Source: Lytechinus pictus (lineage: Eukaryota). Taken from it: 64,000 nucleotides of DNA. Each line of letters opens with the position of its first letter. The first letter of the stretch is position 1. The notes under the pieces are model-generated. The model was not told where the DNA came from. It worked only from the letters and a program-made list of their open reading frames with translations, and ran no database searches. The position numbers were made by a program, and so were the translations under genes. The DNA lies in contig NC_087250.1 of NCBI RefSeq assembly GCF_037042905.1, positions 23,004,001-23,068,000 on the forward strand. The letters are read 5' to 3'. Of the stretch, positions 18,608-64,000 are shown piece by piece.

Positions 18608-18680
18608 ATGTGGAAGCTTGTTGGGCTTCTTGCCCTTGCGGCCGTGTTCGTCAACACGAATGCCAATATAATCAATATCG
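18608..18680 (+). CDS. Exon 1: signal peptide of a secreted/surface HYR-like + multi-Sushi protein
   Basis: MWKLVGLLALAAVFVNTNANIINI+1 nt (basic N-terminus, hydrophobic core, small-residue cleavage site). Perfect donor G/gtaagt, phase 1, matching exon 2. Linkage across the 18-kb intron is inferred. Confidence 0.82.
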
Positions 18681-19639
18681 GTAAGTAGTTTTTTTTAATC
18701 TAGATATCTTTATAAAAAAAAGTTTTCATCATGTCAAAAGTTAAAGTCATGGATTTTGCCTAGTATATGGGACAAAATTTAACACAATTATTTGGTACCC
18801 TTTTTACCCAATTTTTTGTGCATGCCCAGCAGTGATAGTTATGTTCAAGTTTACTTTACAATCAAACGCTAAATGCCAATGACCAATTAACATCTTCGTT
18901 GCTGCCCACTTTGTTTAAAACACTGACCAGGAACCAATCAGAGGAGTTGTTTGATATTTGCAATTCATCGAAATTGGAAAAAAGGGAGGGGGAAAAGGGG
19001 GACAAATTAAAAGGAGAGATGAAAAAAGAAGGAACTTGATGATCATTATTATCAACATTATTATTATCATTGTCTTTGTTATCATTATTATTACTATGAT
19101 AATAATAAGATCATATTTGCCATAATAATTGTAATAGGATATGATGTTCGACCGTAAATTATTGGGGGAGATATTAAAACAGGCCATCCCCCACATGAAA
19201 TAATGGAGGATAATAATACCCCCCCCCCCGAGATCGACACTCATGGAAGGAAGACGGAGAAGACTAGGAAAAAATAAGAATAAAGCACCGACTAATACTA
19301 AGAATTTATCATCAGTGCATTAATTCAAAAGTGCTATTGAATACATTCTTTAAAATGAAATTCTCTCAAGAAACCAAATTTTGTTCTGTATGCTTTACGC
19401 TTAAAGATTATTCCAATTTAAATTAATTACGCCTCGCATACATTTTGTAAATGTTTGTATTTGGACTTGTGGAACATAATGATTTGATTATTTTCTGTTT
19501 GTTGTAATTAGTTTGCGAGTTTGACTTTTTAAAAAGTATTTTCTAACATGTTTTTTATGAATATTTTAAAGTTGTGACAACATCTCTGCCTCTTATACAC
19601 AAACATTTGTATAAATGGTAGTTACTTACTAACCTTTGA

Positions 19640-21300
19640 TAATAACGTTATACTTAAAACTACAATTCCATAATTATAGTGTTGATCCTCTTGCTTACAT
19701 TTTTCAAATTGTCTTTAGCTCATGGACAGGACTGTAATACAGTTTCCTTATTCCATGAAAATTGCAAGAGTCATTCCTATTTTTAAGACAGGAGTTAGAT
19801 TGAATAATAACAATTATTGACCCATATCCCTACTAACATGTCTTTCTAGAATTCTGGGGAAAACTCGTTTATAGCTGAACAATTATTTTTTTGTGTGATA
19901 ATAACATTTTTTCAAATTTTTGATTTTTAATTTAGAAAAAATCCAGTACAATTCATGCCTTATCCTTTGTTGAAAAATTGGTCATGCTGTCGATAAATCT
20001 TCACATTATGGTGGGTATTTTACTGGACTTCTCCAAGGCATTCGAAACTATTAATCATGACATGCTACTCCATAAATTATCGCATTATGGCAAACGTGGA
20101 AAGGCCTTTGGAGTGGTTCAGGAATTACCTCTCTAACAGAAAACATTTTGTTTCTCGAAATAACAATTCCTCCGATTTATCTTATATTAATTGTGGTGTG
20201 CCGCAAGGAAGTATCCTGGGACCCTTTCGTTTATTTCATGTATAAATTATATTAAAAAAGCATCAAATATTTTATCTTTCATTTCTTTTGCTGATGACAC
20301 CAATCTATGTTTCTCTCACAATGATCTTCTTACACAGTCTTGTAAAAATAATAAACTCCGAATTAACTAAAATTTTGAATTGGATCAGAGCTTACAAATT
20401 ATCAATTAACCTTCATAAAACTAAATACATATTATATAGTAATACTATAGATTCGTTGCCTTTTGACATTTGTATTGAAGATTTAAGTGTGTCGTCAATA
20501 AAATTTTGAGTGTTCATGTCGATAACAAACTCTCCCGGAAATGCGATATTGATAATTAATTGCAAAACAATATTTCGTAATTCAGGAATCATAAACAGAT
20601 TAAAAACATTTATTTCTGTTGCTTCTCTACTTAAATTTATATTCTCTTAAATTACCACGTATCATCTATGGGATATTGTTTGGGGGCAGTACCCACCAAA
20701 ATTTACTGAACAAAATATTATTACAAAAGGAAGCTCTATTATTTCATTCTCACATCCCCGTTCTCACACTTATCCGCTTTTCCTTGATTATAAAAAAACA
20801 AGACTATTATACCAATTCCAGCTCTTATGTACATGGATAAGAATTACACTGTAAAAACTGTGGTGTTAAAACTGACACCAGTTGGTGTTAATGGAGGACC
20901 ACACCCTGAGGCCGGTGTTAAAATTACACCCTAGAGATTGAACATAACACCAAAGAGTGTAAATGTAACAACCAAAGGTGTTGTAATAACACATATGGGT
21001 GTAAAATTAACACCACTAATTTAATACCGGTGTAAAACGACTGGTGTGGTCCTCTATGTACACCGATTAACACCACATTTTTTGCTGTGATTCCTTTTGC
21101 ATTTCATGATATGTTTTTTTCCTTCAAAATAACAATTATCATATAGGTATCGGCTGCGAGACACGCCGATAACTTTCATCAGGCTATGCTAAGAACTCGT
21201 TTTGCTCAAAGTACTTATATTTTCACCGGCCAAGAATTTTGGAATCCCCCATAAAGATATTCAACAGGCCCCCTCCATCAACTCATGAAGAGAAAGCCAA
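19640..21300 (+). mobile_element. Highly decayed CR1-group LINE RT fragment
   Basis: Frameshifted motifs: KIARVIPIFK, DFSKAF, WFRNYLSNRK, CGVPQGSILGP, FADDT. Interrupted by a cactgtaaaaa...gctgtg MITE at ~20847-21089. Confidence 0.8.
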
Positions 21301-22739
21301 AACAATATTTGTGTTACTGTCTTACCGAATTAATTAGTTTGTATGTTTTTGTATCATCTAAGCAATCTATGAGCCACACTCTCAGTCTTTTATCCACGCG
21401 TTGCACTCGCCGTGTTCCCCCTCTCCAGTAGCGTACCTAGGATTTTCCACAGGGGGGGGGGCAAATTCGCCCGCCAAAAAATTTGACAAGCAAAAAAAAA
21501 GGTCCTCAACAGGATATAAAGGACATTTCGCACCAGAAAAAATTTGACAAGCAAAAAAAAAAAGGTCTTCAATCTCAAACTCGTCATCAGGGGGCAGTCC
21601 CCCCCCCCCCCCGTTGGTACGCTATAGTGCCCCTCTCTATTTCTCACCCTTTCTCTGTACATATTGCCGTTCTCTCCCCCCCCTCTGTCTGATCTCGCTC
21701 AGGCTTATCTTTGCCGACTCACTCTTTTCCTCTTGCCCCCCCCCCCCCTCCCTCCCCTGTCATGCATGTATTCTTCGTCATATCTTTGTTTTCTTGATGT
21801 AGGTCTATCATATGTTTGATTTGTATTTGTTGATGGAATGAAGATAACAGGGCTCTTGAACTTTCATGCAAAAAAATACATGTACTTTTATCACGGTCAA
21901 ACTGTGTAGGGCCTATATGACATTCAGAAATAAATAGATAAATAAATAAATGGATAAATAAAAATATTTCATGTCACTTTAAAGACTACACTGGGTGATT
22001 TCAAGTTCGGTGTTGAAATCTGGTGTTGGTGTTGGGACAACACCAACACCAGCTACAACACCGTACTTGAAATCACGCTGGTGTTGGGATTGACCTCGGA
22101 AAATATGACGTATTTCCGGCAGTTTGTGTTGAGCTCTGGTGTTGAATGTCGTCTGCTGAACCGAGCATTACAGCTGGTGTTGGGGCTCAGCAGCCTTTTC
22201 AAGCTCTCAACACCAACATCAAACACCGTACTTGAAATCACCCATTGTATTGCCTGTTTAATGAGATGCATATCTTGCTCAAGATGCTTATAATGGAGGT
22301 CAAAACATTCAGTTTAGAAGTCAATATACAAATCACATTTCAGCTCGGATGTCGAACCTTCATTATTTTGATTGATTTTAAAAAAGTGCTCAGTTAATGT
22401 CCCTTTCATACGTGACAATATCAACAATTTTCAACTCGCATAATATAAAATAGGAACTTAATTATCAGTGGCGGATCCAGGGAGGTGGCGCAGGGGGCGC
22501 GCGCCCCCCTAATATTTGAGCGGCGCCGAAGGCGCCGCTCAAAAAAAAAAAAAAAAGTAAAAGAAAGAAAAGGCGCTGCTTGAAAAAATAAAGGAAAGAA
22601 AAGAAAAGGCGCCGCTTAAAAAAATTATACACTGATATAATATTAGCAACAGTAAGGAAAGACTATCCCCCAGCAAAGCACAATCATATCATCTTCCTTA
22701 TCTTTTCTTTTAACTACCCTTTTCCCAACAACTCCGCCG

Positions 22740-24280
22740 GTTAATAATCAGCAATGCGCTGACTGCGTAATAACTGGCGCCAATCAAGAATAATCAGCGC
22801 CACCTTAATCTAAATCGGCGCCGGACAAGAATAATCAGCGCCATTTGGTTATAAATCGGCGCCAGTCGAGAAAAATCGGCACTACCAGAGTCTTAACCGG
22901 CGCCGATCAAGGATAATCTGCACCACCTAAATCTAAATCGGCACCAGATAAAAATAATCGGCGCCATCTGGTTATAAATCGGCGCCGGTACAGAAAAATC
23001 GACGCTGCTTGAGTTCGTAACCGGCGCCGATCAAGGATAATCAGCGCCACCTATATCTAAATCGGGTTGGACAAGAATAATCAGCGCCATCTGGTTATAA
23101 ATCGGCGCTGCCAGAGTCTTAAAGGGATGGTCCGGGCTGAAAATATTTATATCTTGATACATAGAGTAGAATTCACTGAGCAAAATGCCGAAAATTTCAT
23201 CAAAATCGGATAACAAATGATAAAGTTATCGAAGTTTAAAGTTTAGCAATATTTTGTGAAAACAGTCGTCATGAATATTCATTAGGTGGGCTGATGATGT
23301 CACATCCCCACTTTCCGTTTTCTTATGTTATTACATAAAATCATATTTTTTCATTATTTCATACTTGTGTGAATAATATGTCTCCCTTATAATGAAATAA
23401 GTTGCAGCAATAAATATCTAATGCACTAAATCAGTTGTCAATCCCATTTTTCTAGCTCTTGGAGGAAAACATTTGAATAAACCTAATTTCATATAATAAA
23501 ATACAAAAGAATAAGTGGGGATGTGACATCATCAGCCCACCTAATGAATATTCATGACCACTGTTTTCACAAAATATTGCTACACTTTAAAATTCAATAA
23601 CTTTGTTATTTGTTATCCGATTTTGATGAAATTTTCGACATTTTGCTCAGTGAATTCTACTCTATTTATTAAGCTATAAATACTTTCAGCCTGGACCATC
23701 CCTTTAACCGGCGCCGATCAAGAATAATCAGCTCCACCTAACTCTAAATCGGCGCCGGGCAAGAATAAACGGCGCCATCTGGTTATAAATCGGCGCCGGT
23801 TAAGAAAAAATCGGCGCTGCCTGAGTTCGTAACCGGCACCGTTCAAGGATAATCAGCGCCATAGCTATATCTAAATCGGGGCTGGTCAAGAATAATCAGC
23901 GCCATCTGGTTATAAATCGGCGCTGCCTGAGTCTTAACCGGCGCCGATCAAGAATAATCAGCTCCACCTAAATCTAAATCGGCGCCGGACAAGAATAATC
24001 AGCACCACCTGGTTAAAAATCGGCGCCAGTCAAGAATAATCGGCGCCTCCTGGTTCGAAATCGGCGCCAGTCAATTATGAATTATTGTCGCTGCCTGAAT
24101 CTTACGTGACGTCGGTAAAAATAATCAGCACTACTTGTTCTAAATCGGCGCCGGTCAAGAATAATCAGCGTCCCCTGGTTCCAATAAATAGGCGACGGTA
24201 GAATAATGAAGAAGGGCCTATTGCCAACCAAATCTAGATCGGCGCCGGTCAAGAATGATCAGCGGCACCTAGCTGGTTAT
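22740..24280. repeat. GGCGCC-rich minisatellite (~20-21-bp basic unit, ~41- and ~124-bp higher periods)
   Basis: Recurrent aagaataatcagcgccatctggttataaatcggcgccggt and variants. Confidence 0.9.
23123..23703. mobile_element. Kolobok-like MITE (TTAA TSD, purine 5' termini)
   Basis: ttaa|agggatggtccgggctg ... cagcctggaccatccct|ttaa. The empty site gagtcttaaccggcgccgatcaag is present in neighbouring minisatellite units (~22889, ~23929). Confidence 0.88.
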
Positions 24281-28150: not shown

Positions 28151-28206
28151 CGTATATACTACTAATAATAATGATACTGATAATAATAATAATAATAATA
28201 ATGATG

Positions 28207-28237: not shown

Positions 28238-31200
28238 GAAGAAGAAGAAGAGATAAAGATATGAATGTCATGGAATGTTATTATGAGAGCAGACCTGACC
28301 AGGAAAGAGGCTACATCAAGAGAATGTACAAGATCTGGCAAGAGAAGGGTCTTTTCCCAACATCAGAGCAAAGACTTGCAGATCAGGTACGTGTGATCAA
28401 AAGGAATGAGTTACTGACTGAAGTTGAGAGGGAAGGGATCAGACGAAATGTGTATGAACCTGTGAGAGATGAGCAGGAGGAAGTACTCAGACCGGGAAGA
28501 GAAGAGCAGACAGACGCAACAGCTCAATTTCAAACAGAATTGGATCCAACCACTAACAGATTGGATGAAGAGCAGGAAGAGATAAAGATGATATTATTGG
28601 AGATAAAAGAGGGGTTAACACAAGGAGAGCGCCCCACCCCTCCTAATCTGAAGGGAATACCAAGAGAGAAACTGCTGATAGAAACTCAGAAAGTCAACGA
28701 TGTTATGAAGTTTATCAGCTCAGACAGTATTGAGGATACCAACAATCTCATATATGCTGGAGCAGTTCTCGTAACAGAGAGGTTAGGTGTAAGAAAACAG
28801 GAGAACACAAGGAAGCACTGCCTACCACCATGGAAAAGGAGACTTGATAATCAGATAAAGGGATGGAGGACAGACCTATCAAGACTGACAGAGATAAACC
28901 TTGGCAAAGCAGATATCAATGATTTTAAGTACCTTGAGGAGAAGTACAGTATTAGAAGGAAAGGAAGGAAGATCGTCGTGGAGGAACTAAAACAAAGAAT
29001 AACAAGCACTACAGCAAAAGTAAAGAGGTACACCGATCGAGTGTCACAGTATAGACAGAATTCCTTGTTTGAGAACAACCAGAAGAGGTTCTACCAAGAA
29101 ATAAATGGAAAGATGAAAGACGAAGTTCCACCACCAGATCCAGCTGCAGCAATTGCCTTCTGGAGCAACATTTGGAGCCAACCACACAATCACAACCAAG
29201 AAGCTTTGTGGTTGAAAACGAAAGAGGAATGTGCAACTATAGTTGCACAGGATGATCTGACGATCAACAAAAGCAAGCTAGAAAAGATCATTCGGAAAAT
29301 GGCGCCATGGAAAGCTGCCGGTCCAGACGGTGTGCAAGCTTTCTGGGTTAAAAGGTTCACAAATCTTCATGAAAGGGTGAGCATGCAAATGAACGAGATT
29401 GTCGTGAATGGTAACCCCCCTGATTGGATGACAAAAGGAAGAACGGTTCTCATCCCAAAGGATCCTACCAAAGGCAACATCCCGTCAAACTACCGTCCAA
29501 TTACCTGCTTGCCGATTCTCTGGAAGGTACTGACTGGCATAATATCAGAAGAAATACATCAACACCTGGACGATCAAGACATACTACCATGGGAACAGAA
29601 GGGATCTAGAAAAGGAAGTAGAGGAACAAAAGAACAACTATGCATCGACAAAGGAATTATGAAAGACAGCAAGAAAAGAAAAACGAACCTCGCAATGGCA
29701 TGGATTGACTACAAGAAAGCATACGACATGGTTCCGCACTCTTGGATCATCGAGTCTATGGAAATGTTAGGGGTAGCAGACAATATCAGAAGGTTCCTCA
29801 TTACAAGTATGACGAGATGGAGAACTAAGTTGGAAAGTAATGGTGAAGTGCTTGGAGAGGTTGGTATCAAGAGAGGAATCTTTCAGGGAGATAGTCTATC
29901 TCCATTGCTGTTTGTGATGGCAATGACACCATTAACTAAGGTACTCAGAAGATCCAGGCTAGGATATGAGTTCAAGAGCAAGGCAAAAATCAACCATCTA
30001 TTATACATGGACGATTTGAAGCTGTTTGGTAAGACACGAAGTGACTTGGAGTCTCTCATCAACACTGTGCGGATCTTCAGCGAAGACATCGGTATGCAGT
30101 TTGGGTTGGATAAATGTGCAATGATTACTCTCATGAGAGGTAAGCCAGCCAATGACAACAACTTCCAGATGCCGAACGGAGAAGAGATCAGATCAATCGA
30201 AGACGGTGGTAGCTAGAAATATCTCGGAATATTAGAGGCAGATCAGTTGAAACATCAAGAAATGAAGAAGAAGATTGAGGCAGAGTATATCAGGAGAATT
30301 CGGAAGGTGCTCAAATCCAAACTAAATGCTGGAAACATGGTGAAGGCTGTTAACACTTGGGCAGTAGCCCTAGTGAGATATGCTGCTGGCATAGTTGAAT
30401 GGAACAAGCTTGAACTCGAAACCCTGGACAGGAAGACAAGGAAGTTGCTAACTATGCATGGGATGTTTCACCCAAAGTCTGATGTAGATAGACATATGTG
30501 TCAAGAGAGAAGGGAGGACGTGGTCTGGCTGGAATAGAGGAGACTGTAAGATATGAGGAACAAAGCCTATACTGCTATATTGAAGGCCAGATGGATACCA
30601 TCATGACGGCAGTCAAAGAGTCGATGAGGAAAGGAAAGGATGTGACAGCGAAACAGCTGAAGGCTGATCAAAGGAAAATGAGACTGGAAGGATGGAAAGA
30701 GAAGGTGATGCACGGGCAGCATTTAAGACAGACAGAGGAGTTTGCTGGCCCAGAGAGTTGGCAGTGGCTGAAACGAGGAAGTTTAAAGAAGGAGACGGAA
30801 AGTATGCTAGTTGCTGCTCAGGACCAAGCAATTAGAACAAATTACCGAAGAGCCAAAGTTGAAAAGGAGCATACATCTCCCTCATGTAGAATGTGTCATG
30901 ACAAAGACGAAACGGTGTCTCATCTGGTGAGTGAATGCAGCAAAATGGCACAGACAGAGTACAAAGGAAGGCACGACAGAGTAGCAGCTGCAGTTCATTG
31001 GGGTCTAGCCAAGAAGTACCATTTACCCCATGCGGAAAAATGGTACGAACATCGGGCAGAGCCTGTAGTAGAGAACGACGATGTAAAACTTTTATGGGAT
31101 TTTAATATCCAGACAGACAAGGTCATTGAAGCTAGACGACCAGACATCGTTCTCTTAAAGAAGAAGGAAAAGGAATGTCTCATCATAGATATTGCGATTC

Positions 31201-36655: not shown

Positions 36656-36895
36656 CTCCAGTCTGTCCCACGCTGTCACACGACGATCAGTTTTACTACA
36701 TCCTTGATGCATCCAAAGGATTCTACCCTGTCACATTGACACAATGGGAGGGACTTCAGGATATTGACGTCACATTGGAATGCAACATCGAAAACCGTGC
36801 TGGAGACACGCTTAAACTCACCCCTGGGCCTTGCATTATTACCTGTAGTGTGTCAGAATGTGACGAAGAGTTTAAGTATACCATAACGGTTATTG
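36656..36895 (+). CDS. Exon 2: divergent HYR (hyalin-repeat)/Ig-like beta-sandwich domain
   Basis: tacag/ ... G/gtaagt, 240 nt, phase 1-1, open. (A)PVCPTLSHDDQFYYILDASKGFYPVTLTQWEGLQDIDVTLECNIENRAGDTLKLTPGPCIITCSVSECDEEFKYTITVI. Exon is well supported; the HYR call rests on P-x-C-P, V..W, G..L..G and F-x-Y-T-I-T-V spacing only. Confidence 0.85.
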
Positions 36896-40907: not shown

Positions 40908-41135
40908 ATAAGACTTCTTGCAACGTCCCTGCTGAAGTCGCAAATGGCCAGGTGGACGGAGCTTCAACCGTCGTCCCCGTCGGCACTGAGGTTACTGTCA
41001 GTTGCAACACGAATTACGCACCGTCGGGAGGACCTGGTGTATGTACAAGAAGTGAAGTCTTCGCTGATAACCAAGGCGGGAGCACGGAAGTGGGTACCGA
41101 TGAGCCGAGTGTGGTCGGACTTGCAGAATGTAACG
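40908..41135 (+). CDS. Exon 3: atypical Sushi/CCP domain with long insertion
   Basis: tctccag/ ... G/gtaagt, 228 nt, phase 1-1. (D)KTSCNVPAEVANGQVDGASTVVPVGTEVTVSCNTNYAPSGGPGVCTRSEVFADNQGGSTEVGTDEPSVVGLAECN; four Cys in CCP spacing. Confidence 0.88.
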
Positions 41136-42459: not shown

Positions 42460-42651
42460 AACTCAAATGTGGAAAGCCTGCAGAGGGCACGAACACAGTA
42501 GAAGTTTCCATCACTGAAGGGGCATTAAATGAAGATTACTTCTATGAGTGCCTTCCTAACTATATTGCGGATGGATCATTAGCAGCGTGGTGCAAGTTGA
42601 ATGCAAATGATGAAGCTGAATGGATCCCATCGCCTGCTCCTTCATGCAGTG
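42460..42651 (+). CDS. Exon 4: Sushi/CCP domain, type A
   Basis: ttcag/ ... G/gtaagg, 192 nt, phase 1-1. (E)LKCGKPAEGTNTVEVSITEGALNEDYFYECLPNYIADGSLAAWCKLNANDEAEWIPSPAPSCS. Confidence 0.92.
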
Positions 42652-47111: not shown

Positions 47112-47300
47112 AAATCAAATGCGGTGCGCCCTCATCTGTTGCAAACGCAGGAGATGTTACCATCGATGAAGGATCAATCGCTGACACTTACTCCCATTCG
47201 TGTAATGCTGGTTTTGCTGCGGATGGTGACTTGACTACCACCTGTAATCTTGATGATGGAGGAGACACAGCAAGCTGGTCTCCTGTGGGCAGTTGCGTCG
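47112..47300 (+). CDS. Exon 5: Sushi/CCP domain, type B
   Basis: tgcag/ ... G/gtaagg, 189 nt, phase 1-1. (E)IKCGAPSSVANAGDVTIDEGSIADTYSHSCNAGFAADGDLTTTCNLDDGGDTASWSPVGSCV. Confidence 0.92.
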
Positions 47301-49833: not shown

Positions 49834-50025
49834 AACTCAAATGTGGAAAGCCCGCAGAGGGCACGAACACAGTAGAAGTTTCCATCACTGAAGGGGCATT
49901 AAATGAAGATTTCTTCTACGAGTGCCTTCCTAACTATATTGCGGATGGATCATTAGCAGCGTGGTGCAAGTTGAATGCAAATGATGAAGCTGAATGGATC
50001 CCATCGCCTGCTCCTTCATGCAGTG
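49834..50025 (+). CDS. Exon 6: Sushi/CCP domain, type A' (duplicate of exon 4)
   Basis: 192 nt with the same splice sites. Three nt differences from exon 4 (two silent, one Y>F). Confidence 0.92.
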
Positions 50026-50543: not shown

Positions 50544-50735
50544 AAATCACATGCAGCAATCCCCCATCTGTTGAAAACGCAGACCTTGATTCCACTCCAG
50601 CAGGAACAATTGGTGAAGTTTTAAGTTATTCGTGTAACGATGGCTTCATTCCGGACGGTGACTTGTCTACGACCTGTAATCGTGATGATGGAGGAGACAC
50701 AGCAAGCTATTCTTCTGTGCCAGGCAAATGCGTCG
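50544..50735 (+). CDS. Exon 7: Sushi/CCP domain, type B' (array copy 1)
   Basis: tgcag/ ... G/gtaagg, 192 nt. (E)ITCSNPPSVENADLDSTPAGTIGEVLSYSCNDGFIPDGDLSTTCNRDDGGDTASYSSVPGKCV. Confidence 0.93.
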
Positions 50736-51780
50736 GTAAGGATTTGTCACATTATCTTTCAGATTGAGAGGTTTGCTTTTTAAATTCTGATTCGTGTTAC
50801 AAGTAAAAATCATGCGTAAAACAAACAAAAAACATGAACCATGTACATCAGTGGTCTGTTAATTGACATAGAAATAGATACATTTTAACTCCTCTCTCTC
50901 TCTCTCATTCTTTCTCTTGCTTTGAAATAACACTTGAATCCCCCAAATTGTATCAAATGAAGAGGAGTTGCAAACTATATGTATATAGCTCTCAGTCTTA
51001 TACCCTGTTTAGATCTGTCTCTCTCTCGCGTCACACTAAACAATCGTCTGGAACGAACACGGCATAAAATCAATTGTGAAACATTTCTGTTTTTTCATCT
51101 TTTCCAACAACTTTGTATTTTTCTAGTTTTATTTTTATCTTTTTTTGTCATAAATTTTCAATGTATCTCCTAGTTTATACATTTTCATCTTTCATTAATT
51201 CTTATGTGTATTTTGTTCTCTCCTTCCATTTTCATCTTGAAGATTTGTAACATATTTCTTTAATATGCTTTAACTCCCAAACAAACTCCCAAATTCCCTG
51301 GAAAAAAATCGATTCAGATACATGTAACAAAGTCAAAACAGCTCTTAAAACATACTTATTTAAATTGTACCTAGCCTCAACATAATGAACTCACCAACAC
51401 TTCTCTTCCTTTCCTTTGTTTTCTCAAGTGCATAGAGACTTATTTGTTCTGTGATATGCGCAATACAAAAACTGACCATTATTATTATTATTATTATTAT
51501 TAGTTGAATTTTGAAGAATGGGAGAGGGCAAGAGTAGTTCCCTTTCATGTAAATGTAAAATTAGAATGATTATTGTTATTTGTGCTACATTGTATTTATT
51601 ATGATTATTATTATTATCTCTACTCTAATTATCATTGGTATTATAATTTCACTATTTTGATAATTTTTTGCTAAAACTTTATTTTTAATCATTACCATTA
51701 TTGTGTGATTATCATCATCATCCTTTATTATCATCATTATTGTAGTCATTTTATCATTACCAGCATCATTATTATAGTAC

Positions 51781-52050
51781 TTGGGGCGTTGTGGTCTAGT
51801 GGTTAAGACTCTCGTCTTTCAATCTGAAGGACGTGGGTTCGATTCCAAGCTATGGCGTGTTTTCCTTCAGCAAGAAATTTATCCACATTGTGCTGCACTC
51901 AACCCAGGGTACCGGCAGGAAGCAATTCCTGAAAAAGCAGTGAGCACCGGAATCAGTAGACTATATGTAGCTTAGCCGGGGTGATATAGGAGCGCCTAGA
52001 GCACTTAGGAAGGTGGATATGTGCACTAAACAAATCCTATATTATTATTT
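51781..52050 (+). mobile_element. tRNA-derived SINE in the repeat unit (further copies start at 53409, 55036, 56677, 58300, 59929, 61558, 63187)
   Basis: A box tggtctagtgg, B box ggttcgattcc, core cactcaacccag..ggtaccggcagg, 3' end agcgcctagagcac..(att)n. Confidence 0.88.
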
Positions 52051-52158
52051 ATTTATAATTTTATTACTTATATCGTTGATATCATTTTCGTCATCATAAT
52101 CATTGTAGTTCATATCACACCCGAATGAATATGCTATGCTTTTTTTCACATTGTGCAG

Positions 52159-52350
52159 AACCCACATGCAGCAATCCCCCATCTGTTGAAAACGCAGACC
52201 TTGATTCCACTCCAGCAGGAACAATTGGTGAAGTTTTAAGTTATTCGTGTAACGATGGCTTCATTTCGGACGGTGACTTGTCTACGACCTGTAATCGTGA
52301 TGATGGAGGAGACACAGCAAGCTATTCTTCTGTGCCAGGCAAATGCGTCG
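52159..52350 (+). CDS. Exon 8: Sushi/CCP B' copy 2 (EPTC, ISDG variant)
   Basis: cag/ ... /gtaagg, 192 nt, open, phase 1-1. Confidence 0.93.
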
Positions 52351-53098
52351 GTAAGGATTTGTCACATTATCTTTCAGATTGAGAGGTTTGCTTTTTAAAT
52401 TCTGATTCGTGTTACAAGTAAAAATCATGCGTAAAACAAACAAAAAAACGTGAACCATGTACATCAGTGGTCTGTTAATTGACATACTGTAGAAATAGAT
52501 ACATTTTAACTCCTCTCTCTCTCATTCTTTCTTTCTCTTGCTTTGAAATAACACTTGAATCCCCCAAATTGTATCAAATGAAGAGGAGTTGCAAGCTACA
52601 TGTATATAGCTCTCAGTCTTATACCCTGTTTAGATCTGTCTCTCTCTCGCGTCACACTAAACAATCGTCTGGAACGAACACGGCATAAAATCAATTGTGA
52701 AACATTTCTGTTTTTTCATCTTTTCCAACAACTTTGTATTTTTCTAGTTTTTATTTTTATCTTTTTTTGTCATAAATTTTCAATGTATCTCCTAGTTTAT
52801 ACATTTTCATCTTTTATTAATTCTTATGTGTATTTTGTTCTCTCCTTCCATTTTCATCTTGAAGATTTGTAACATATTTCTTTAATATGCTTTAACTCCC
52901 AAACAAACTCCCAAATTCCCTGGAAAAAAATCGATTCAGATACATGTAACAAAGTCAAAACAGCTCTTAAAACATACTTATTTAAATTGTACCTAGCCTC
53001 AACATAATGAACTCACCAACACTTCTCTTCCTTTCCTTTGTTTTCTCAAGTGCATAGAGACTTATTTGTTCTGTGATATGCGCAATACAAAAACTGAC

Positions 53099-53130
<32 letters not shown>

Positions 53131-53787
53131 GTTGAATTTTGAAGAATGGGAGAGGGCAAGAGTAGTTCCCTTTCATGTAAATGTAAAATTAGAATGATTA
53201 TTGTTATTTGTGCTACATTGTATTTATTATGATTATTATTATTATCTCTACTCTAATTATCATTGGTATTATAATTTCACTATTTTGATAATTTTTTGCT
53301 AAAACTTTATTTTTAATCATTACCATTATTGTGTGATTATCATCATCATCCTTTATTATCATCATTATTGTAGTCATTTTATCATTACCAGCATCATTAT
53401 TATAGTACTTGGGGCGTTGTGGTCTAGTGGTTAAGACTCTCGTCTTTCAATCTGAAGGACGTGGGTTCGATTCCAAGCTATGGCGTGTTTTCCTTCAGCA
53501 AGAAATTTATCCACATTGTGCTGCACTCAACCCAGGGTACCGGCAGGAAGCAATTCCTGAAAAAGCAGTGAGCACCGGAATCAGTAGACTATATGTAGCT
53601 TAGCCGGGGTGATATAGGAGCGCCTAGAGCACTTAGGAAGGTGGATATGTGCACTATACAAATCCTATATTATTATTTATTTATAATTTTATTACTTATA
53701 TCGTTGATATCATTTTCGTCATCATAATCATTGTAGTTCATATCACACCCGAATGAATATGCTATGCTTTTTTTTCACATTGTGCAG

Positions 53788-53979
53788 AACCCACATGCAG
53801 CAATCCCCCATCTGTTGAAAACGCAGACCTTGATTCCACTCCAGCAGGAACAATTGGTGAAGTTTTAAGTTATTCGTGTAACGATGGCTTCATTCCGGAC
53901 GGTGACTTGTCTACGACCTGTAATCGTGATGATGGAGGAGACACAGCAAGCTATTCTTCTGTGCCAGGCAAATGCGTCG
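53788..53979 (+). CDS. Exon 9: Sushi/CCP B' copy 3
   Basis: cag/ ... /gtaagg, 192 nt, open, phase 1-1. Absent from the ORF track only because an extra intronic T removes the spurious upstream start. Confidence 0.93.
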
Positions 53980-54725
53980 GTAAGGATTTGTCACATTATC
54001 TTTCAGATTGAGAGGTTTGCTTTTTAAATTCTGATTCGTGTTACAAGTAAAAATCATGCGTAAAACAAACAAAAAACATGAACCATGTACATCAGTGGTC
54101 TGTTAATTGACATACTGTAGAAATAGATACATTTTAACTCCTCTCTCTCTCTCTCATCCTTTCTCTTGCTTTGAAATAACACTTGAATCCCCCAAATTGT
54201 ATCAAATGAAGAGGAGTTGCAAACTATATGTATATAGCTCTCAGTCTTATACCCTGTTTAGATCTGTCTCTCTCTTGCGTCACACTAAACAATCATCTGG
54301 AACGAACACGGCATAAAATCAATTGTGAAACATTTCTGTTTTTTCATCTTTTCCAACAACTTTGTATTTTTCTAGTTTTATTTTTATCTTTTTTTGTCAT
54401 AAATTTTCAATGTATCTCCTAGTTTATACATTTTCATCTTTCATTAATTCTTATGTGTATTTTGTTCTCTCCTTCCATTTTCATCTTGAAGATTTGTAAC
54501 ATATTTCTTTAATATGCTTTAACTCCCAAACAAACTCCCAAATTCCCTGGAAAAAAATCGATTCAGATACATGTAACAAAGTCAAAACAGCTCTTAAAAC
54601 ATACTTATTTAAATTGTACCTAGCCTCAACATAATGAACTCACCAACACTTCTCTTCCTTTCCTTTGTTTTCTCAAGTGCATAGAGACTTATTTGTTCTG
54701 TGATATGCGCAATACAAAAACTGAC

Positions 54726-54757
<32 letters not shown>

Positions 54758-55424
54758 GTTGAATTTTGAAGAATGGGAGAGGGCAAGAGTAGTTCCCTTT
54801 CATGTAAATGTAAAATTAGAATGATTATTGTTATTTGTGCTACATTGTATTTATTATGATTATTATTATTATCTCTACTCTAATTATCATTGGTATTATA
54901 ATTTCACTATTTTTATAATTTTTTGCTAAAACTTTATTTTTAATCATTACCATTATTGTGTGATTATCATCATCATCCTTTATTATCATCATTATTGTAG
55001 TCATTTTATCATTACCAGCATCATTATTATAGTATTTGGGGCGTTGTAGTCTAGTGGTTAAGACTCTCGTCTTTCAATCTGAAGGACGTGGGTTCGATTC
55101 CAAGCCATTGCATGTTTTCCTTCAGCAAGAAATTTATCCACATTGTGCTACACTCAACCCAGGGTACCGGCAGGAAGCAATTCCTGAAAAAGCAGTGAGC
55201 ACCGGAATCAGTAGACTATATGTAGCTTAGCCGGGGTGATATAGGAGCGCCTAGAGCACTTACATGTAGGAAGGTGGATATGTGCACTATACAAGTCCTA
55301 TATTATTATTTATTTATCATTTTATTACTTGTATCGTTGATATCATTTTCGTCATCATAATCATTGTAGTTCATATCACACCCGAATGAATATCATATGC
55401 TATGCTTTTATTCACATTGTGCAG

Positions 55425-55616
55425 AACCCACATGCAGCAATCCCCCATCTGTTGAAAACGCAGCCCTTGATTCCACTCTAGCAGGAACAATTGGTGAAGT
55501 TTTAAGTTATTCGTGTAACGATGGCTTCATTCCGGACGGTGACTTGTCTACGACCTGTAATCGTGATGATGGAGGAGACACAGCAAGCTATTCTTCTGTG
55601 CCAGGCAAATGCGTCG
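55425..55616 (+). CDS. Exon 10: Sushi/CCP B' copy 4 (NAALDSTL variant)
   Basis: cag/ ... /gtaagg, 192 nt, open, phase 1-1. Confidence 0.93.
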
Positions 55617-57059
55617 GTAAGGATTTGTCACATTATCTTTCAGATTGAGAGGTTTGCTTTTTAAATTCTGATTCGTGTTACAAGTAAAAATCATGCGTAA
55701 AAAAAACAAAAAAACGTGAACCATGTACATCAGTGGTCTGTTAATTGACATACTGTAGAAATAGATACATTTTAACTCCTCTCTCTCTCTCTCTCTCTCT
55801 TTCTTTCTCTTGCTTTGAAATAACACTTGAATCCCCCAAATTGTATCAAATGAAGAGGAGTTGCAAGCTACATGTTTATAGCTCTCAGTCTTATACCCCG
55901 TTTAGATCTGTCTCTCTCTCGCGTCACACTAAACAATCATCTGGAACGAACATGGCATGAAATCAATTGTGAAACATTTCTGTTTTTTCATCTTTTCCAA
56001 CAACTATGTATTTTTCTAGTTTTATTTTTATCTTTTTTTGTCTTAAATTTTCACTGTATCTCCTAGTTTATACATTTTCATCTTTTATTAATTCTTATGT
56101 GTATTTTGTTCTCTCATTCTGTTTTCATCTTGAAGATTTCTAACATATTTCTTTAATATGCTTTAACTCCCAAACAAACTCCCAAAATCCCTGGAAAAAA
56201 ATTGATTCAGATACATGTAACAAAGTCAAAACAGCTCTTAAAACATACTTATTTAAATTGTACCTAGCCTCAACATAATGAGCTCACCAACACTTCTCCT
56301 CCTTTCCTTTGTTTTCTCAAGTGCATAGAGACTTATTTGTTCTGTGATATGCGCAATACAAAAACTGACCATTTTTATTATTATTATTATTATTATTAGG
56401 TGAATTTTGAAGAATGGGAGAGGGCAATAGTAGTTCCCTTTCATGTAAATGTAAAATTAGAATGATTATTGTTATTTGTGCTACATTGTATTTATTATGA
56501 TTATTATTATTATCTCTACTCTAATTATCATTGGTATTATAATTTCACTATTTTGATAATTTTTTGCTAAAACTTTATTTTTAATCATTACCATTATTGT
56601 GTGATTATCATCATCATCCTTTATTATCATCATTATTGTAGTCATTTTATCATTACCAGCATCATTATTATAGTATTTGGGGCGTTGTAGTCTAGTGGTT
56701 AAGACTCTCGTCTTTCAATCTGAAGGACGTGGGTTCGATTCCAAGCCATTGCATGTTTTCCTTCAGCAAGAAATTTATCCACATTGTGCTACACTCAACC
56801 CAGGGTACCGGCAGGAAGCAATTCCTGAAAAAGCAGTGAGCACCGGAATCAGTAGACTATATGTAGCTTAGCCGGGGTGATATAGGAGCGCCTAGAGCAC
56901 TTAGGAAGGTGGATATGTGCACTATACAAGTCCTATATTATTATTTATTTATCATTTTATTACTTGTATCGTTGATATCATTTTCGTCATCATAATCATT
57001 GTAGTTCATATCACACCCGAATGAATATCATATGCTATGCTTTTATTCACATTGTGCAG

Positions 57060-57251
57060 AACCCACATGCAGCAATCCCCCATCTGTTGAAAACGCAGCC
57101 CTTGATTCCACTCCAGCAGGAACAATTGGTGAAGTTTTAAGTTATTCGTGTAACGATGGCTTCATTCCGGACGGTGACTTGACTACGACCTGTAATCGTG
57201 ATGATGGAGGAGACACAGCAAGCTATTCTTCTGTGCCAGGCAAATGCGTCG
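57060..57251 (+). CDS. Exon 11: Sushi/CCP B' copy 5 (NAAL, LTTT)
   Basis: cag/ ... /gtaagg, 192 nt, open, phase 1-1. Confidence 0.93.
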
Positions 57252-58682
57252 GTAAGGATTTGTCACATTATCTTTCAGATTGAGAGGTTTTCTTTTTAAA
57301 TTCTGATTCGTGTTACAAGTAAAAATCATGCGTAAAACAAACAAAAAAACGTGAACCATGTACATCAGTGGTCTGTTAATTGACATACTGTAGAAATAGA
57401 TACATTTTAACTCCTCTCTCTCTCATTCTTTCTTTTTCTTGCTTTGAAATAACACTTGAATCCCCCAAATTGTATCAAATTAAGAGGAGTTGCAAGCTAC
57501 ATGTATATAGCTCTCAGTCTTATACCCCGTTTAGATCTGTCTCTCTCTCGCGTCACACTAAACAATCATCTGGAACGAACATGGCATAAAATCAATTGTG
57601 AAACATTTCTGTTTTTTCATCTTTTCCAACAACTATGTATTTTTCTAGTTTTATTTTTATATTTTTTTTTCATAAATTTTCAATTTATCTCCTAGTTTAT
57701 ACATTTTCATCTTTTATTAATTCTTATGTGTATTTTGTTCTCTCCTTCCGTTTTCATCTTGAAGATTTCTAACGTATTTCTATAATATGCTTTAACTCCC
57801 AAACAAACTCCCAAAATCCCTGGAAAAAAATTGATTCAGATACATGTAACAAAGTCAAAACAGCTCTTAAAACATACTTATTTAAATTGTACCTAGCCTC
57901 AACATAATGAGCTCACCAACACTTCTCTTCCTTTCCTTTGTTTTCTCAAGTGCATAGAGACTTATTTGTTCTGTAATATGCGCAATACAAAAACTGACCA
58001 TTATTAGTATTTTTATTATTATTAGGTGAATTTTGAAGAATGGGAGAGGGCAAGAGTAGTTCCCTTTCATGTTAATGTAAAATTAGAATGATTATTGTTA
58101 TTTGTGCTACATTGTATTTATTATGATTATTATTATTATCTCTACTCTAATTATCATTGGTATTATAATTTCACTATTTTTATAATTTTTAGCTAAAACT
58201 TTATTTTTAATCATTACCATTATTGTGTGATTATCATCATCATCCTTTATCATCATTATTGTAGTCATTTTATCATTACCAGCATCATTATCATAGTACT
58301 TGGGGCATTGTGGTCTAGTGGTTAAGACTCTCGTCTTTCAATCTGAAGGACGTGGGTTCGATTCCAAGCTATGGCGTGTTTTCCTTCAGCAAGAAATTTA
58401 TCCACATTGTGCTGCACTCAACCCAGGGTACCGGCAGGAAGCAATTCCTGAAAAAGCAGTGAGCACTGGAATCAGTAGACTATATGTAGCTTTGCCGGGG
58501 TGATATAGGAGCGCCTAGAGCACTTAGGAAGGTGGATATGTGCACTATACAAATCCTATATTATTATTTATTTATCATTTTATTACTTATATCGTTGATA
58601 TCATTTTCGTCATCATAATCATTGTAGTTCATATCACACCCGAATGAATATCATATGCTATGCTTTTATTCACATTGTGCAG

Positions 58683-58874
58683 AACCCACATGCAGCAATC
58701 CCCCATCTGTTGAAAACGCAGCCCTTGATTCCACTCCAGCAGGAACAATTGGTGAAGTTTTAAGTTATTCGTGTAACGATGGCTTCATTCCGGACGGTGA
58801 CTTGACTACGACCTGTAATCGTGATGATGGAGGAGACACAGCAAGCTATTCTTCTGTGCCAGGCAAATGCGTCG
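58683..58874 (+). CDS. Exon 12: Sushi/CCP B' copy 6
   Basis: cag/ ... /gtaagg, 192 nt, open, phase 1-1. Confidence 0.93.
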
Positions 58875-60311
58875 GTAAGGATTTGTCACATTATCTTTCA
58901 GATTGAGAGGTTTGCTTTTTAAATTCTGATTCGTGTTACAAGTAAAAATCATGCGTAAAACAAACAAAAAAACGTGAACCATGTACATCAGTGGTCTGTT
59001 AATTGACATACTGTAGAAATAGATACATTTTAACTCCTCTCTCTCTCATTCTTTCTTTTTCTTGCTTTGAAATAACACTTGAATCCCCCAAATTGTATCA
59101 AATTAAGAGGAGTTGCAAGCTACATGTATATAGCTCTCAGTCTTATACCCCGTTTAGATCTGTCTCTCTCTCGCGTCACACTAAACAATCATCTGGAAAA
59201 AACATGGCATAAAATCAATTGTGAAACATTTCTGTTTTTTCATCTTTTCCAACAACTATGTATTTTTCTAGTTTTATTTTTATATTTTTTTTCATAAATT
59301 TTCAATTTATCTCCTAGTTTATACATTTTCATCTTTTATTAATTCTTATGTGTATTTTGTTCTCTCCTTCCGTTTTCATCTTGAAGATTTCTAACGTATT
59401 TCTATAATATGCTTTAACTCCCAAACAAACTCCCAAATTCCCTGGAAAAAAATTGATTCAGATACAATGTACATGTAACAAAGTCAAAACAGCTCTTAAA
59501 GCATACTTATTTAAATTGTACCTAGCCTCAACATAATGAACTCACCAACACTTCTCTTCCTTTCCTTTGTTTTCTCAAGTGCATAGAGACTTATTTGTTC
59601 TGTAATATGCGCAATACAAAAACTGACCATTATTAGTATTTTTATTATTATTAGGTGAATTTTGAAGAATGGGAGAGGGCAAGAGTAGTTCCCTTTCATG
59701 TTAATGTAAAATTAGAATGATTATTGTTATTTGTGCTACATTGTATTTATTATGATTATTATTATTATCTCTACTCTAATTATCATTGGTATTATAATTT
59801 CACTATTTTTATAATTTTTAGCTAAAACTTTATTTTTAATCATTACCATTATTGTGTGATTATCATCATCATCCTTTATCATCATTATTGTAGTCATTTT
59901 ATCATTACCAGCATCATTATCATAGTACTTGGGGCATTGTGGTCTAGTGGTTAAGACTCTCGTCTTTCAATCTGAAGGACGTGGGTTCGATTCCAAGCTA
60001 TGGCGTGTTTTCCTTCAGCAAGAAATTTATCCACATTGTGCTGCACTCAACCCAGGGTACCGGCAGGAAGCAATTCCTGAAAATGCAGTGAGCACTGGAA
60101 TCAGTAGACTATATGTAGCTTAGCCGGGGTGATATAGGAGCGCCTAGAGCACTTAGGAAGGTGGATATGTGCACTATACAAATCCTATATTATTATTTAT
60201 TTATCATTTTATTACTTATATCGTTGATATCATTTTCGTCATCATAATCATTGTAGTTCATATCACACCCGAATGAATATCATATGCTATGCTTTTATTC
60301 ACATTGTGCAG

Positions 60312-60503
60312 AACCCACATGCAGCAATCCCCCATCTGTTGAAAACGCAGCCCTTGATTCCACTCCAGCAGGAACAATTGGTGAAGTTTTAAGTTATTCG
60401 TGTAACGATGGCTTCATTCCAGACGGTGACTTGACTACGACCTGTAATCGTGATGATGGAGGAGACACAGCAAGCTATTCTTCTGTGCCAGGCAAATGCG
60501 TCG
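60312..60503 (+). CDS. Exon 13: Sushi/CCP B' copy 7 (silent CCA variant)
   Basis: cag/ ... /gtaagg, 192 nt, open, phase 1-1. Confidence 0.92.
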
Positions 60504-61940
60504 GTAAGGATTTGTCACATTATCTTTCAGATTGAGAGGTTTGCTTTTTAAATTCTGATTCGTGTTACAAGTAAAAATCATGCGTAAAACAAACAAAAAA
60601 ACGTGAACCATGTACATCAGTGGTCTGTTAATTGACATACTGTAGAAATAGATACATTTTAACTCCTCTCTCTCTCATTCTTTCTTTTTCTTGCTTTGAA
60701 ATAACACTTGAATCCCCCAAATTGTATCAAATTAAGAGGAGTTGCAAGCTACATGTATATAGCTCTCAGTCTTATACCCCGTTTAGATCTGTCTCTCTCT
60801 CGCGTCACACTAAACAATCATCTGGAAAAAACATGGCATAAAATCAATTGTGAAACATTTCTGTTTTTTCATCTTTTCCAACAACTATGTATTTTTCTAG
60901 TTTTATTTTTATATTTTTTTTCATAAATTTTCAATTTATCTCCTAGTTTATACATTTTCATCTTTTATTAATTCTTATGTGTATTTTGTTCTCTCCTTCC
61001 GTTTTCATCTTGAAGATTTCTAACGTATTTCTATAATATGCTTTAACTCCCAAACAAACTCCCAAATTCCCTGGAAAAAAATTGATTCAGATACAATGTA
61101 CATGTAACAAAGTCAAAACAGCTCTTAAAGCATACTTATTTAAATTGTACCTAGCCTCAACATAATGAACTCACCAACACTTCTCTTCCTTTCCTTTGTT
61201 TTCTCAAGTGCATAGAGACTTATTTGTTCTGTAATATGCGCAATACAAAAACTGACCATTATTAGTATTTTTATTATTATTAGGTGAATTTTGAAGAATG
61301 GGAGAGGGCAAGAGTAGTTCCCTTTCATGTTAATGTAAAATTAGAATGATTATTGTTATTTGTGCTACATTGTATTTATTATGATTATTATTATTATCTC
61401 TACTCTAATTATCATTGGTATTATAATTTCACTATTTTTATAATTTTTAGCTAAAACTTTATTTTTAATCATTACCATTATTGTGTGATTATCATCATCA
61501 TCCTTTATCATCATTATTGTAGTCATTTTATCATTACCAGCATCATTATCATAGTACTTGGGGCATTGTGGTCTAGTGGTTAAGACTCTCGTCTTTCAAT
61601 CTGAAGGACGTGGGTTCGATTCCAAGCTATGGCGTGTTTTCCTTCAGCAAGAAATTTATCCACATTGTGCTGCACTCAACCCAGGGTACCGGCAGGAAGC
61701 AATTCCTGAAAAAGCAGTGAGCACTGGAATCAGTAGACTATATGTAGCTTTGCCGGGGTGATATAGGAGCGCCTAGAGCACTTAGGAAGGTGGATATGTG
61801 CACTATACAAATCCTATATTATTATTTATTTATCATTTTATTACTTATATCGTTGATATCATTTTCGTCATCATAATCATTGTAGTTCATATCACACCCG
61901 AATGAATATCATATGCTATGCTTTTATTCACATTGTGCAG

Positions 61941-62132
61941 AACCCACATGCAGCAATCCCCCATCTGTTGAAAACGCAGCCCTTGATTCCACTCCAGCAG
62001 GAACAATTGGTGAAGTTTTAAGTTATTCGTGTAACGATGGCTTCATTCCGGACGGTGACTTGACTACGACCTGTAATCGTGATGATGGAGGAGACACAGC
62101 AAGCTATTCTTCTGTGCCAGGCAAATGCGTCG
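61941..62132 (+). CDS. Exon 14: Sushi/CCP B' copy 8
   Basis: cag/ ... /gtaagg, 192 nt, open, phase 1-1. Confidence 0.92.
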
Positions 62133-63569
62133 GTAAGGATTTGTCACATTATCTTTCAGATTGAGAGGTTTGCTTTTTAAATTCTGATTCGTGTTACAAG
62201 TAAAAATCATGCGTAAAACAAACAAAAAAACGTGAACCATGTACATCAGTGGTCTGTTAATTGACATACTGTAGAAATAGATACATTTTAACTCCTCTCT
62301 CTCTCATTCTTTCTTTTTCTTGCTTTGAAATAACACTTGAATCCCCCAAATTGTATCAAATTAAGAGGAGTTGCAAGCTACATGTATATAGCTCTCAGTC
62401 TTATACCCCGTTTAGATCTGTCTCTCTCTCGCGTCACACTAAACAATCATCTGGAAAAAACATGGCATAAAATCAATTGTGAAACATTTCTGTTTTTTCA
62501 TCTTTTCCAACAACTATGTATTTTTCTAGTTTTATTTTTATATTTTTTTTCATAAATTTTCAATTTATCTCCTAGTTTATACATTTTCATCTTTTATTAA
62601 TTCTTATGTGTATTTTGTTCTCTCCTTCCGTTTTCATCTTGAAGATTTCTAACGTATTTCTATAATATGCTTTAACTCCCAAACAAACTCCCAAATTCCC
62701 TGGAAAAAAATTGATTCAGATACAATGTACATGTAACAAAGTCAAAACAGCTCTTAAAGCATACTTATTTAAATTGTACCTAGCCTCAACATAATGAACT
62801 CACCAACACTTCTCTTCCTTTCCTTTGTTTTCTCAAGTGCATAGAGACTTATTTGTTCTGTAATATGCGCAATACAAAAACTGACCATTATTAGTATTTT
62901 TATTATTATTAGGTGAATTTTGAAGAATGGGAGAGGGCAAGAGTAGTTCCCTTTCATGTTAATGTAAAATTAGAATGATTATTGTTATTTGTGCTACATT
63001 GTATTTATTATGATTATTATTATTATCTCTACTCTAATTATCATTGGTATTATAATTTCACTATTTTTATAATTTTTAGCTAAAACTTTATTTTTAATCA
63101 TTACCATTATTGTGTGATTATCATCATCATCCTTTATCATCATTATTGTAGTCATTTTATCATTACCAGCATCATTATCATAGTACTTGGGGCATTGTGG
63201 TCTAGTGGTTAAGACTCTCGTCTTTCAATCTGAAGGACGTGGGTTCGATTCCAAGCTATGGCGTGTTTTCCTTCAGCAAGAAATTTATCCACATTGTGCT
63301 GCACTCAACCCAGGGTACCGGCAGGAAGCAATTCCTGAAAATGCAGTGAGCACTGGAATCAGTAGACTATATGTAGCTTAGCCGGGGTGATATAGGAGCG
63401 CCTAGAGCACTTAGGAAGGTGGATATGTGCACTATACAAATCCTATATTATTATTTATTTATCATTTTATTACTTATATCGTTGATATCATTTTCGTCAT
63501 CATAATCATTGTAGTTCATATCACACCCGAATGAATATCATATGCTATGCTTTTATTCACATTGTGCAG

Positions 63570-63761
63570 AACCCACATGCAGCAATCCCCCATCTGTTGA
63601 AAACGCAGCCCTTGATTCCACTCCAGCAGGAACAATTGGTGAAGTTTTAAGTTATTCGTGTAACGATGGCTTCATTCCAGACGGTGACTTGACTACGACC
63701 TGTAATCGTGATGATGGAGGAGACACAGCAAGCTATTCTTCTGTGCCAGGCAAATGCGTCG
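63570..63761 (+). CDS. Exon 15: Sushi/CCP B' copy 9 (silent CCA variant)
   Basis: cag/ ... /gtaagg, 192 nt, open, phase 1-1. Confidence 0.92.
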
Positions 63762-64000
63762 GTAAGGATTTGTCACATTATCTTTCAGATTGAGAGGTTT
63801 GCTTTTTAAATTCTGATTCGTGTTACAAGTAAAAATCATGCGTAAAACAAACAAAAAAACGTGAACCATGTACATCAGTGGTCTGTTAATTGACATACTG
63901 TAGAAATAGATACATTTTAACTCCTCTCTCTCTCATTCTTTCTTTTTCTTGCTTTGAAATAACACTTGAATCCCCCAAATTGTATCAAATTAAGAGGAGT

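Follow-up and report, generated by a model that had tools for sequence, protein, structure and literature searches.

The stretch of Lytechinus pictus DNA analyzed here (64,000 nucleotides of contig NC_087250.1 in assembly GCF_037042905.1, positions 23,004,001 to 23,068,000 of the forward strand; hereafter the window) carries on its + strand 15 exons that join in a single frame of 947 codons without a stop, the last nine of them being near-identical copies of a one-domain exon repeated together with its intron. The gene continues past the end of the window, and its product would be a secreted protein of approximately 1,540 residues in which a lectin-like binding head is joined to an acidic stalk of 16 Sushi, or complement control protein (CCP), modules, with a predicted N-terminal anchor and with turnover of the stalk by unequal crossover. 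We favor this reading of the locus and give it an even chance of being correct.

Exon structure of the locus

A preliminary description of this DNA, made from its letters, had proposed that 15 exons with canonical splice sites join in one frame and that every internal exon is one domain in phase 1-1. The joined frame confirms the whole of this observation, as all 14 introns have the form GTAAG...CAG and all internal exons are multiples of three nucleotides in phase 1-1. In order, the exons encode a predicted signal peptide (exon 1), a beta-rich domain (exon 2), an atypical CCP (exon 3, or E3), the CCPs A and B, a second A-type module (A') and nine copies of a further CCP (B'1 to B'9). A pattern consisting of YAG, 180-249 nt open in phase 1-1 with at least four cysteines, and GTAAG has 15 matches on the + strand, comprising 14 exons and one alternative acceptor; it has none on the - strand and none in any of 20 doublet shuffles of the window.

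The repeated modules, each with four cysteines in about 60 residues, place the product among the Sushi/CCP repeat proteins (PF00084). The Pfam cut-off for this family is passed by E3, which keeps its earlier assignment as an atypical CCP, and by B, B'1 and B'5, while A and A' lie below it. Acidic residues outnumber basic ones by 148 to 32 in the part of the protein encoded in the window, where no N-glycosylation sequon occurs.

Exon 2 had been labeled as an HYR-like domain, and this label found no support: a Pfam scan of the exon returned no family at E<=1, HYR (PF02494) included, and a sequence search of the PDB gave composition-level matches alone. Many of the top matches in a fold search were beta-sandwich proteins by title; the best Z of 5.2 is not significant, and because the AlphaFold model used has a predicted local distance difference test (pLDDT) score of 42.5, its fold matches are not counted. 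Atlas scores for the exon fell below 0.9 twice. Two in-frame acceptors lie 6 nt apart at the start of this exon, at 36656 and 36662, and the RefSeq models of both species discussed below fit the upstream one.

Protein models and domain architecture

The gene had been described as hidden and without a recognized orthologue, but RefSeq models exist both for the locus and for a relative. The model of the locus, XP_063956555.1, automatically and misleadingly named "SVEP1-like", reproduces 12 of the 15 exons exactly and in window order (E2, E3, A' and B'1-9); it lacks exon 1, A and B, the last two of which are supported by RNA. It holds 12 B' copies, nine within the window and three beyond, followed by three C-type lectin-like domains; the exons for the last three B' modules, the lectin triad and the stop lie beyond the window and are known from this RefSeq protein. 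When exon 1, A and B are added to the model, the protein has 1538 residues and 16 CCPs, versus nine CCPs in the relative.

The relative, XP_041466488.1, belongs to a second Lytechinus species, which we take from its accession series to be L. variegatus, and bears the same automatic name. It opens with a signal peptide, the exon-2 domain, E3 and A; next come seven B-type CCPs, all identical, and, at its end, three C-type lectin-like domains. The opening signal peptide matches exon 1 at 19 of 24 positions and is followed by the E2 domain, which supports exon 1 as part of the gene. The earlier domain plan therefore stands in its poly-Sushi part and was incomplete at the C-terminus, where the three lectin-like domains, located beyond the window, had been missed.

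Exon 2 led to XP_041466488.1, the lectin region of which led in turn to XP_063956555.1 and other L. pictus models. In word-index searches, exon 2 gave one match among nine candidates (proteins of 140-2000 residues), and the lectin region recovered the query alone among 4892 candidates of 603-1920 residues and two of 3039 candidates of 30-602 residues, proteins longer than 1920 residues being outside the search. No relative outside Lytechinus appeared in these exon-2 and lectin-region searches of limited sensitivity, and the gene may be lineage-specific, as had been proposed. When 1.84 billion representatives were searched with exon 2, five hits to repeat proteins (from an archaeon, bacteria and a fish) were returned and were rejected as sums of weak per-repeat scores; since this search missed the known positive XP_041466488.1, its blank says little about the range of the gene. 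Nothing was found in the literature on the gene, its accessions or its architecture, most subscription papers and supplements being outside the coverage.

Sushi matches are present in both proteins and occupy 12 stretches of XP_063956555.1. The C-terminal regions match Lectin_C (PF00059) at 77 bits in XP_041466488.1 and 72 bits in XP_063956555.1, and each contains three W[IY]G motifs; they are thereby placed in the C-type lectin-like superfamily, which is marked by a WIG-type core motif and conserved cysteines. Sequence matches in the PDB included DEC-205, mannose receptors, CR1 and CD55. EPN and WND are absent from the lectin domains, and the only QPD, found 45 residues ahead of the domain 1 core motif, is outside the long loop. 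The WND motif and the long-loop position are parts of the classic C-type lectin sugar site, and the domains thus lack the signature of the calcium-dependent sugar-binding C-type lectins, which combine EPN or QPD in the long loop with WND. EPN and QPD are given as the usual sugar-specificity motifs in the available part of PMC514892. The exon-2 domain and lectin domains 1 and 3 each have an odd number of cysteines (5, 7 and 11, respectively).

No transmembrane stretch is present in either model. Past the signal region, the highest 19-residue hydropathy is 1.58 in XP_041466488.1 and 1.16 in XP_063956555.1, and the C-termini are basic and hydrophilic, so that no membrane anchor is predicted. Together with the predicted signal exon, this agrees with the earlier proposal of a secreted, non-membrane poly-Sushi protein, and secretion is likely.

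Two older L. pictus models, XP_054756993.1 and XP_054756995.1, each combine B' modules with a portion of the lectin triad, lectin domain 2 being common to both; the gene could have been split between them, or they could represent a second haplotype or a recent gene duplicate. Next to the lectin exon, XP_054756993.1 shows different unit variants, and its lectin region differs at eight of 215 residues; this hints at another haplotype, though assembly may explain the differences.

RNA support for the exon joints

Splicing was followed in four of nine listed runs, X1 and X5 as contigs and X7 and X9 as raw stranded reads (approximately 6 in 100 of which were read), over positions 46900-52140, a stretch that comprises B, A' and B'1 alone. 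None of the listed runs is recorded as RNA, and their word shares of 0.18-0.23 (0.20 being expected for exons alone) were not used as evidence.

A head-to-tail joint between B' exons occurs in all four runs (contigs in X1 and X5, 6 reads in X7 and 8 in X9), entering the start of B' with the four letters that open copies 2-9. In all reads across this joint, the first mate maps to the - strand, as is usual in stranded libraries for RNA of the + strand. The joint from an A-type exon to B is present in X1, X5 and two reads of X7, and the joint from B to an A-type exon, with GT..AG ends, in X1, X5 and one read of X7; X9 has neither. In X5, a 255-nt loose end past the B' donor translates by hand to ten residues that open the lectin region, and the same ten residues open this region in XP_063956555.1 and in an older L. 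pictus model. Spliced transcripts, which the preliminary description had anticipated, therefore link A to B, B to A, B' to B' and B' to the lectin exon.

Within 47111-50024, the A and B exons also appear together in a contig of 411 nt (381 plus a 30-nt overlap) in X1 and X5, which in X5 forms a closed loop that starts inside B and has no branch. This loop could fit the A-B-A' order, further A-B repeats in other animals or circular RNA. Stranded depth in X7 is 16.5 over B', 3.1 over A' and 1.15 over B, near 12:2:1 though from few reads, and the fit is poorer in X9 (10.9, 0.3 and 0). Copy number is not read from the contig depths (B' 2427-3068 versus 172 in X1; 1932 versus 101 in X5). The X1 and X5 contigs agree in three exon-B variants (47181, 47188 and 47269), one of them an Ala-to-Gly change; Gly is also the residue at this position in B' and in the repeat of the relative.

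The tandem array and its recombination

The last nine exons had been placed in near-identical 1.63-kb units whose introns looked as homogeneous as the exons. The eight complete units measure 1615-1637 bp, and over their 28 pairs the exons differ at 1.2% and the introns at 1.9% of ungapped sites, corresponding to within-array identities of 98.8% and 98.1%. Units 6 and 8 are identical across 1629 bp, and units 5-8 are only 0-8 intron substitutions apart; the first units are more divergent, with private indels and substitutions by the dozen in units 1-5. Of the seven exon positions that vary among the nine B' copies, six alter the residue.

The 49 informative sites sort into 11 partitions, with switches from one to another along the unit. 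The four-gamete test is failed by 221 of 1176 site pairs, with 18 failures among the 227 pairs within 150 bp of each other and 203 among the 949 pairs farther apart, and none of 2000 permutations reached the near value. These failures, and the contrast between near and far pairs, indicate that the units are recombinant mosaics, in keeping with the earlier view that recombination between units has shaped a young exon-intron array. The variation in repeat number that this view implied is seen between species, with 12 copies here and seven in XP_041466488.1. Within-array identity, a between-species protein identity of 54% and the four-gamete test together establish concerted evolution of the repeats, judged from the protein of the relative, as its introns were not seen.

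The array unit is itself chimeric. In its exon and donor flank it resembles B (81%), a piece in its middle matches the intron between A' and B'1 (88%), another piece matches the intron between E3 and A (81%), and its acceptor flank matches the acceptor flank of A and A' (78-81%). An older alternation of A and B was probably converted, by a crossover near an acceptor, into a B'-B' unit that then multiplied, and unequal crossover is likely the cause of the later turnover as well. A 41-bp AT-rich minisatellite lies just 5' of A (41848-42402, 13 copies) and A' (49559-49778, 5 copies), and related sequence precedes the B' acceptors; this minisatellite could act as a seed of crossovers.

A SINE (short interspersed nuclear element)-like repeat of tRNA-like appearance occupies 51783-51908 in the B' intron and has been copied with every unit; ARAGORN and Rfam were blank for it. 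The very deep RNA coverage of this repeat comes mostly from reads that diverge from the window and likely derives from other genomic copies.

Possible function of the encoded protein

Between the two Lytechinus proteins, the three lectin domains are identical at 115 of 130, 118 of 128 and 122 of 134 positions (88, 92 and 91%, respectively). The corresponding values are 92% for E3, 86% for A, 77% for B and 73% for exon 2, and the amplified repeats, B' here and the B-type module in the relative, share 34 of 63 positions (54%). B' carries Tyr where B has Trp near the end of the CCP. The lectin triad is the most conserved large block and probably the working end of the molecule.

In the reading favored here, the three conserved lectin-like domains would serve as a binding head, and the acidic Sushi stalk, probably a rod, would hold this head away from a predicted N-terminal anchor. 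The heads contain neither the long-loop EPN or QPD nor WND and so would bind their ligand, be it protein or glycan, without using the classic calcium site. The stalk would be both lengthened and homogenized by unequal crossover of exon-intron units. Symmetric phase 1-1 modules of one domain make every crossover frame-safe; because the internal exons have this form, units can be gained or lost with the frame intact, and the stalk can drift. The odd cysteines would permit disulfide cross-linking into an extracellular coat or matrix. A head that is conserved, a stalk with both its unit and its copy number turned over between congeners, and an end possibly capable of cross-linking together fit a tether, with the lectin triad likely acting as head and the CCPs as spacer.

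Several observations weigh against this tether. The change from B to B' is concentrated in one loop, with nucleotide differences at 24 of 48 sites in codons 13-28, compared with 16 of 102 across codons 29-63 and 12 of 100 sites of the following intron, a distribution that a neutral spacer does not predict. The AlphaFold models, built from 2-4 sequences each, have pLDDT scores of 36.1 for the lectin triad and 42.5 for exon 2 and give no usable picture of a rod or of disulfides. As to the transcript, the A'-B'1 joint is not among the joints listed (15 of 35), the E1-E2, E2-E3 and E3-A joints lie outside the stretch that was compared with RNA, and the head-to-tail joints prove neither that all 12 copies occur in one mRNA nor that this RNA is linear rather than circular.

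The strongest alternative, though we consider it unlikely, is that the repeats are themselves the binding units, a changed CCP loop having swept the array to give a species-specific multivalent surface on a gamete coat or in self/non-self recognition, on the model put forward for VERL and EBR1. Each species has amplified its own repeat, and in a three-way comparison 18 positions are unique to B', versus four to B and six to the repeat of the relative, so that B' is either a fast lineage or an older paralogue. Within codons 13-28, the proportions of changed nonsynonymous and synonymous sites (pN and pS) are 20/36 and 4/11.7, in a window picked after the data had been seen. The available part of one review treats concerted repeat expansion in fertilization proteins (PMC8830517). 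However, the ratio of nonsynonymous to synonymous rates (dN/dS) between B and B' over the whole exon is approximately 1.0-1.1, which leaves positive selection unproven and would equally be given by relaxed constraint, and the divergent upstream flank means that a chimeric exon explains the loop too. With a post hoc window and a ratio near 1, selection, relaxation and a chimeric exon are all possible. No ZP, TSP or CUB domain was found in Pfam scans of XP_041466488.1 and XP_063956555.1. More doubtful still is a fuller version of the same idea, in which the protein would be a Lytechinus-specific, CCP-based counterpart of VERL and EBR1 with a loop swept in each species, lectin heads that fix it to the gamete coat or body surface, and length alleles.

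It is also rather improbable that the gene encodes an organic-matrix protein of the skeleton, in which acidic repeats would bind calcium or mineral and the non-canonical lectins would assemble the matrix. Like the spicule matrix proteins of urchins, the product is predicted to be secreted, acidic and repetitive and bears C-type lectin domains, but it is built of four-cysteine CCP modules with three lectin domains rather than of repeats rich in proline and glycine, as the spicule matrix repeats are described in the available part of PMC5460417.

There is still less to recommend a soluble immune protein, the lectin heads of which would tag microbes while the CCP stalk engaged urchin C3 in the manner of factor H, CR1 or SpCRL/SpCRS. 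Urchins do possess complement-related proteins with multiple CCPs (10.1101/2022.04.21.489004, in the part available), CR1 length alleles arise by internal duplication according to the accessible portion of PMC2188435, and the CCPs match chains of CR1, CD55 and factor H with E values from 7e-7 to 9e-4. These matches, however, reflect the generic CCP fold, and no FIMAC or Kazal match and no classic sugar site was detected. Complement-binding CCP sites are usually basic, whereas B' is acidic (nine acidic versus two basic residues). For a regulator of conserved C3, moreover, relatives would be expected in other urchins, and the homologue searches returned none.

Least probable of all is that the long stalk is partly illusory, through a copy number made by the assembly (units 5-8 are similar enough to be miscounted, and in XP_054756993.1 and XP_054756995.1 the gene is split and the unit variants differ), mRNAs with only some of the B' exons, or circular-RNA joints such as the closed A+B loop of X5 would allow, since the private differences of units 1-5 show that several copies are real, the depth ratio in X7 is near that expected even though X9 fits less well, and the model of the relative also holds a homogeneous array.

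Other features of the window

The window is AT-rich, repeat-laden animal DNA in which ARAGORN and Rfam scans found no matches. The features of the gene are collected in Table 1. GATA motifs, too, are present within 18319-18560, 5' of the start codon.

Table 1. Positions of the exons and associated features within the window
Feature	Position	Strand	Remarks
Exon 1, predicted signal peptide	18608..18680	+	24 codons, open; GTAAGT phase-1 donor
Exon 2, beta-rich domain of 79 residues with 5 Cys	36656..36895	+	Letter-exact in XP_063956555.1
Exon 3 (E3), atypical Sushi/CCP with long insertion	40908..41135	+	Pfam Sushi 21.2 bits (cut-off 20.7), profile 1-39
Exon A, divergent CCP	42460..42651	+	Sushi 16.1 bits, below cut-off of 20.7; full profile covered, 4 Cys
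Exon B, CCP	47112..47300	+	Sushi 24.1 bits; counterpart of the seven-fold repeat of XP_041466488.1
Exon A', recent copy of A, duplicated with flanks	49834..50025	+	3 nt differ; Sushi 16 bits, below 20.7; 4 Cys
Exons B'1-9, 192 nt each	starts 50544, 52159, 53788, 55425, 57060, 58683, 60312, 61941, 63570	+	
Tandem array, one B' CCP exon per 1.63-kb exon-intron unit	50544..64000	+	Sushi 31 bits
Intron leaving the window at its end	63762..64000	+	Further exons placed beyond from XP_063956555.1
Possible promoter	18319..18560	+	Motif positions alone: TATA-like run some 120 nt 5' of ATG, and CCAAT boxes, two on each strand (four in all)

Intron 1 contains a non-long-terminal-repeat retrotransposon (28261-31450, + strand) between TAA runs, with RVT_1 and zf-RVT matches and interrupted by a stop and a frameshift; its C-terminal nuclease-like part and TAA target recall, in our estimation, the R4/Dong-type elements. 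The same intron holds a second 41-bp minisatellite (22771-24181), GC-richer than the AT-rich one and unrelated to it, which an inverted-repeat element interrupts at approximately 23117-23707. A broken long interspersed nuclear element with endonuclease and reverse transcriptase matches lies at 2529-5490 on the - strand.

Significance and comparison with known systems

At this one locus, the expansion of a single-exon domain is caught in progress, with the older A-B-A' alternation, the chimeric founder unit and the 12-copy mosaic array side by side. As its congener has expanded a different unit (XP_041466488.1), the pair offers a compact test of a neutral spacer against the spread of selected surface changes, in a genus already in use for genetics and cross-fertilization work. 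The annotation is also corrected: the signal exon and two exons that are expressed (A and B) are missing from the RefSeq model, which bears a misleading name.

That name is a by-product of annotation. Like SVEP1/polydom, the protein is predicted to be secreted and has a long run of CCPs, but the VWA, EGF and pentraxin domains of SVEP1 were not matched by Pfam (E<=1 for XP_041466488.1, E<=0.01 for XP_063956555.1), and three lectin-like domains stand at its C-terminus. Selectins consist of an N-terminal lectin domain, an EGF domain, CCPs and a transmembrane segment. They share with the present protein a lectin-type head on a CCP stalk that sets its reach, and one exon per domain; here, however, the heads are C-terminal and three in number, there is no EGF domain, membrane anchor or EPN/WND, and the repeats are near-identical. 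The repeats and lectins of spicule matrix proteins differ similarly, with a C-type lectin and acidic repeats rich in proline and glycine there and CCP repeats with three lectin domains here.

Among urchin proteins, SpCRL and SpCRS of S. purpuratus are likewise mosaics with many single-exon CCPs but carry FIMAC, as far as the available part of 10.1101/2022.04.21.489004 describes them, and FIMAC/Kazal was not detected here; neither protein was returned by the exon-2 or lectin-region homologue searches. The repeats of EBR1 are of TSP, CUB and hyalin types, and the Pfam scans of the two Lytechinus proteins found no hyalin or ZP-N domain either. VERL and EBR1 resemble the present gene in having repeats that are homogenized within species and different between species, and differ from it in their domain types and in their known egg-surface location and sperm ligands (PMC8830517, in the part available). 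In CR1, coding and intron sequence were likewise duplicated jointly to lengthen a CCP array, but its unit is a long homologous repeat of multiple CCPs in a membrane protein with known ligands, according to the accessible portion of PMC2188435, whereas the unit here is a single exon. The copying mechanism is thus already known from VERL and CR1; what is new is the architecture and its separate expansion in two species.

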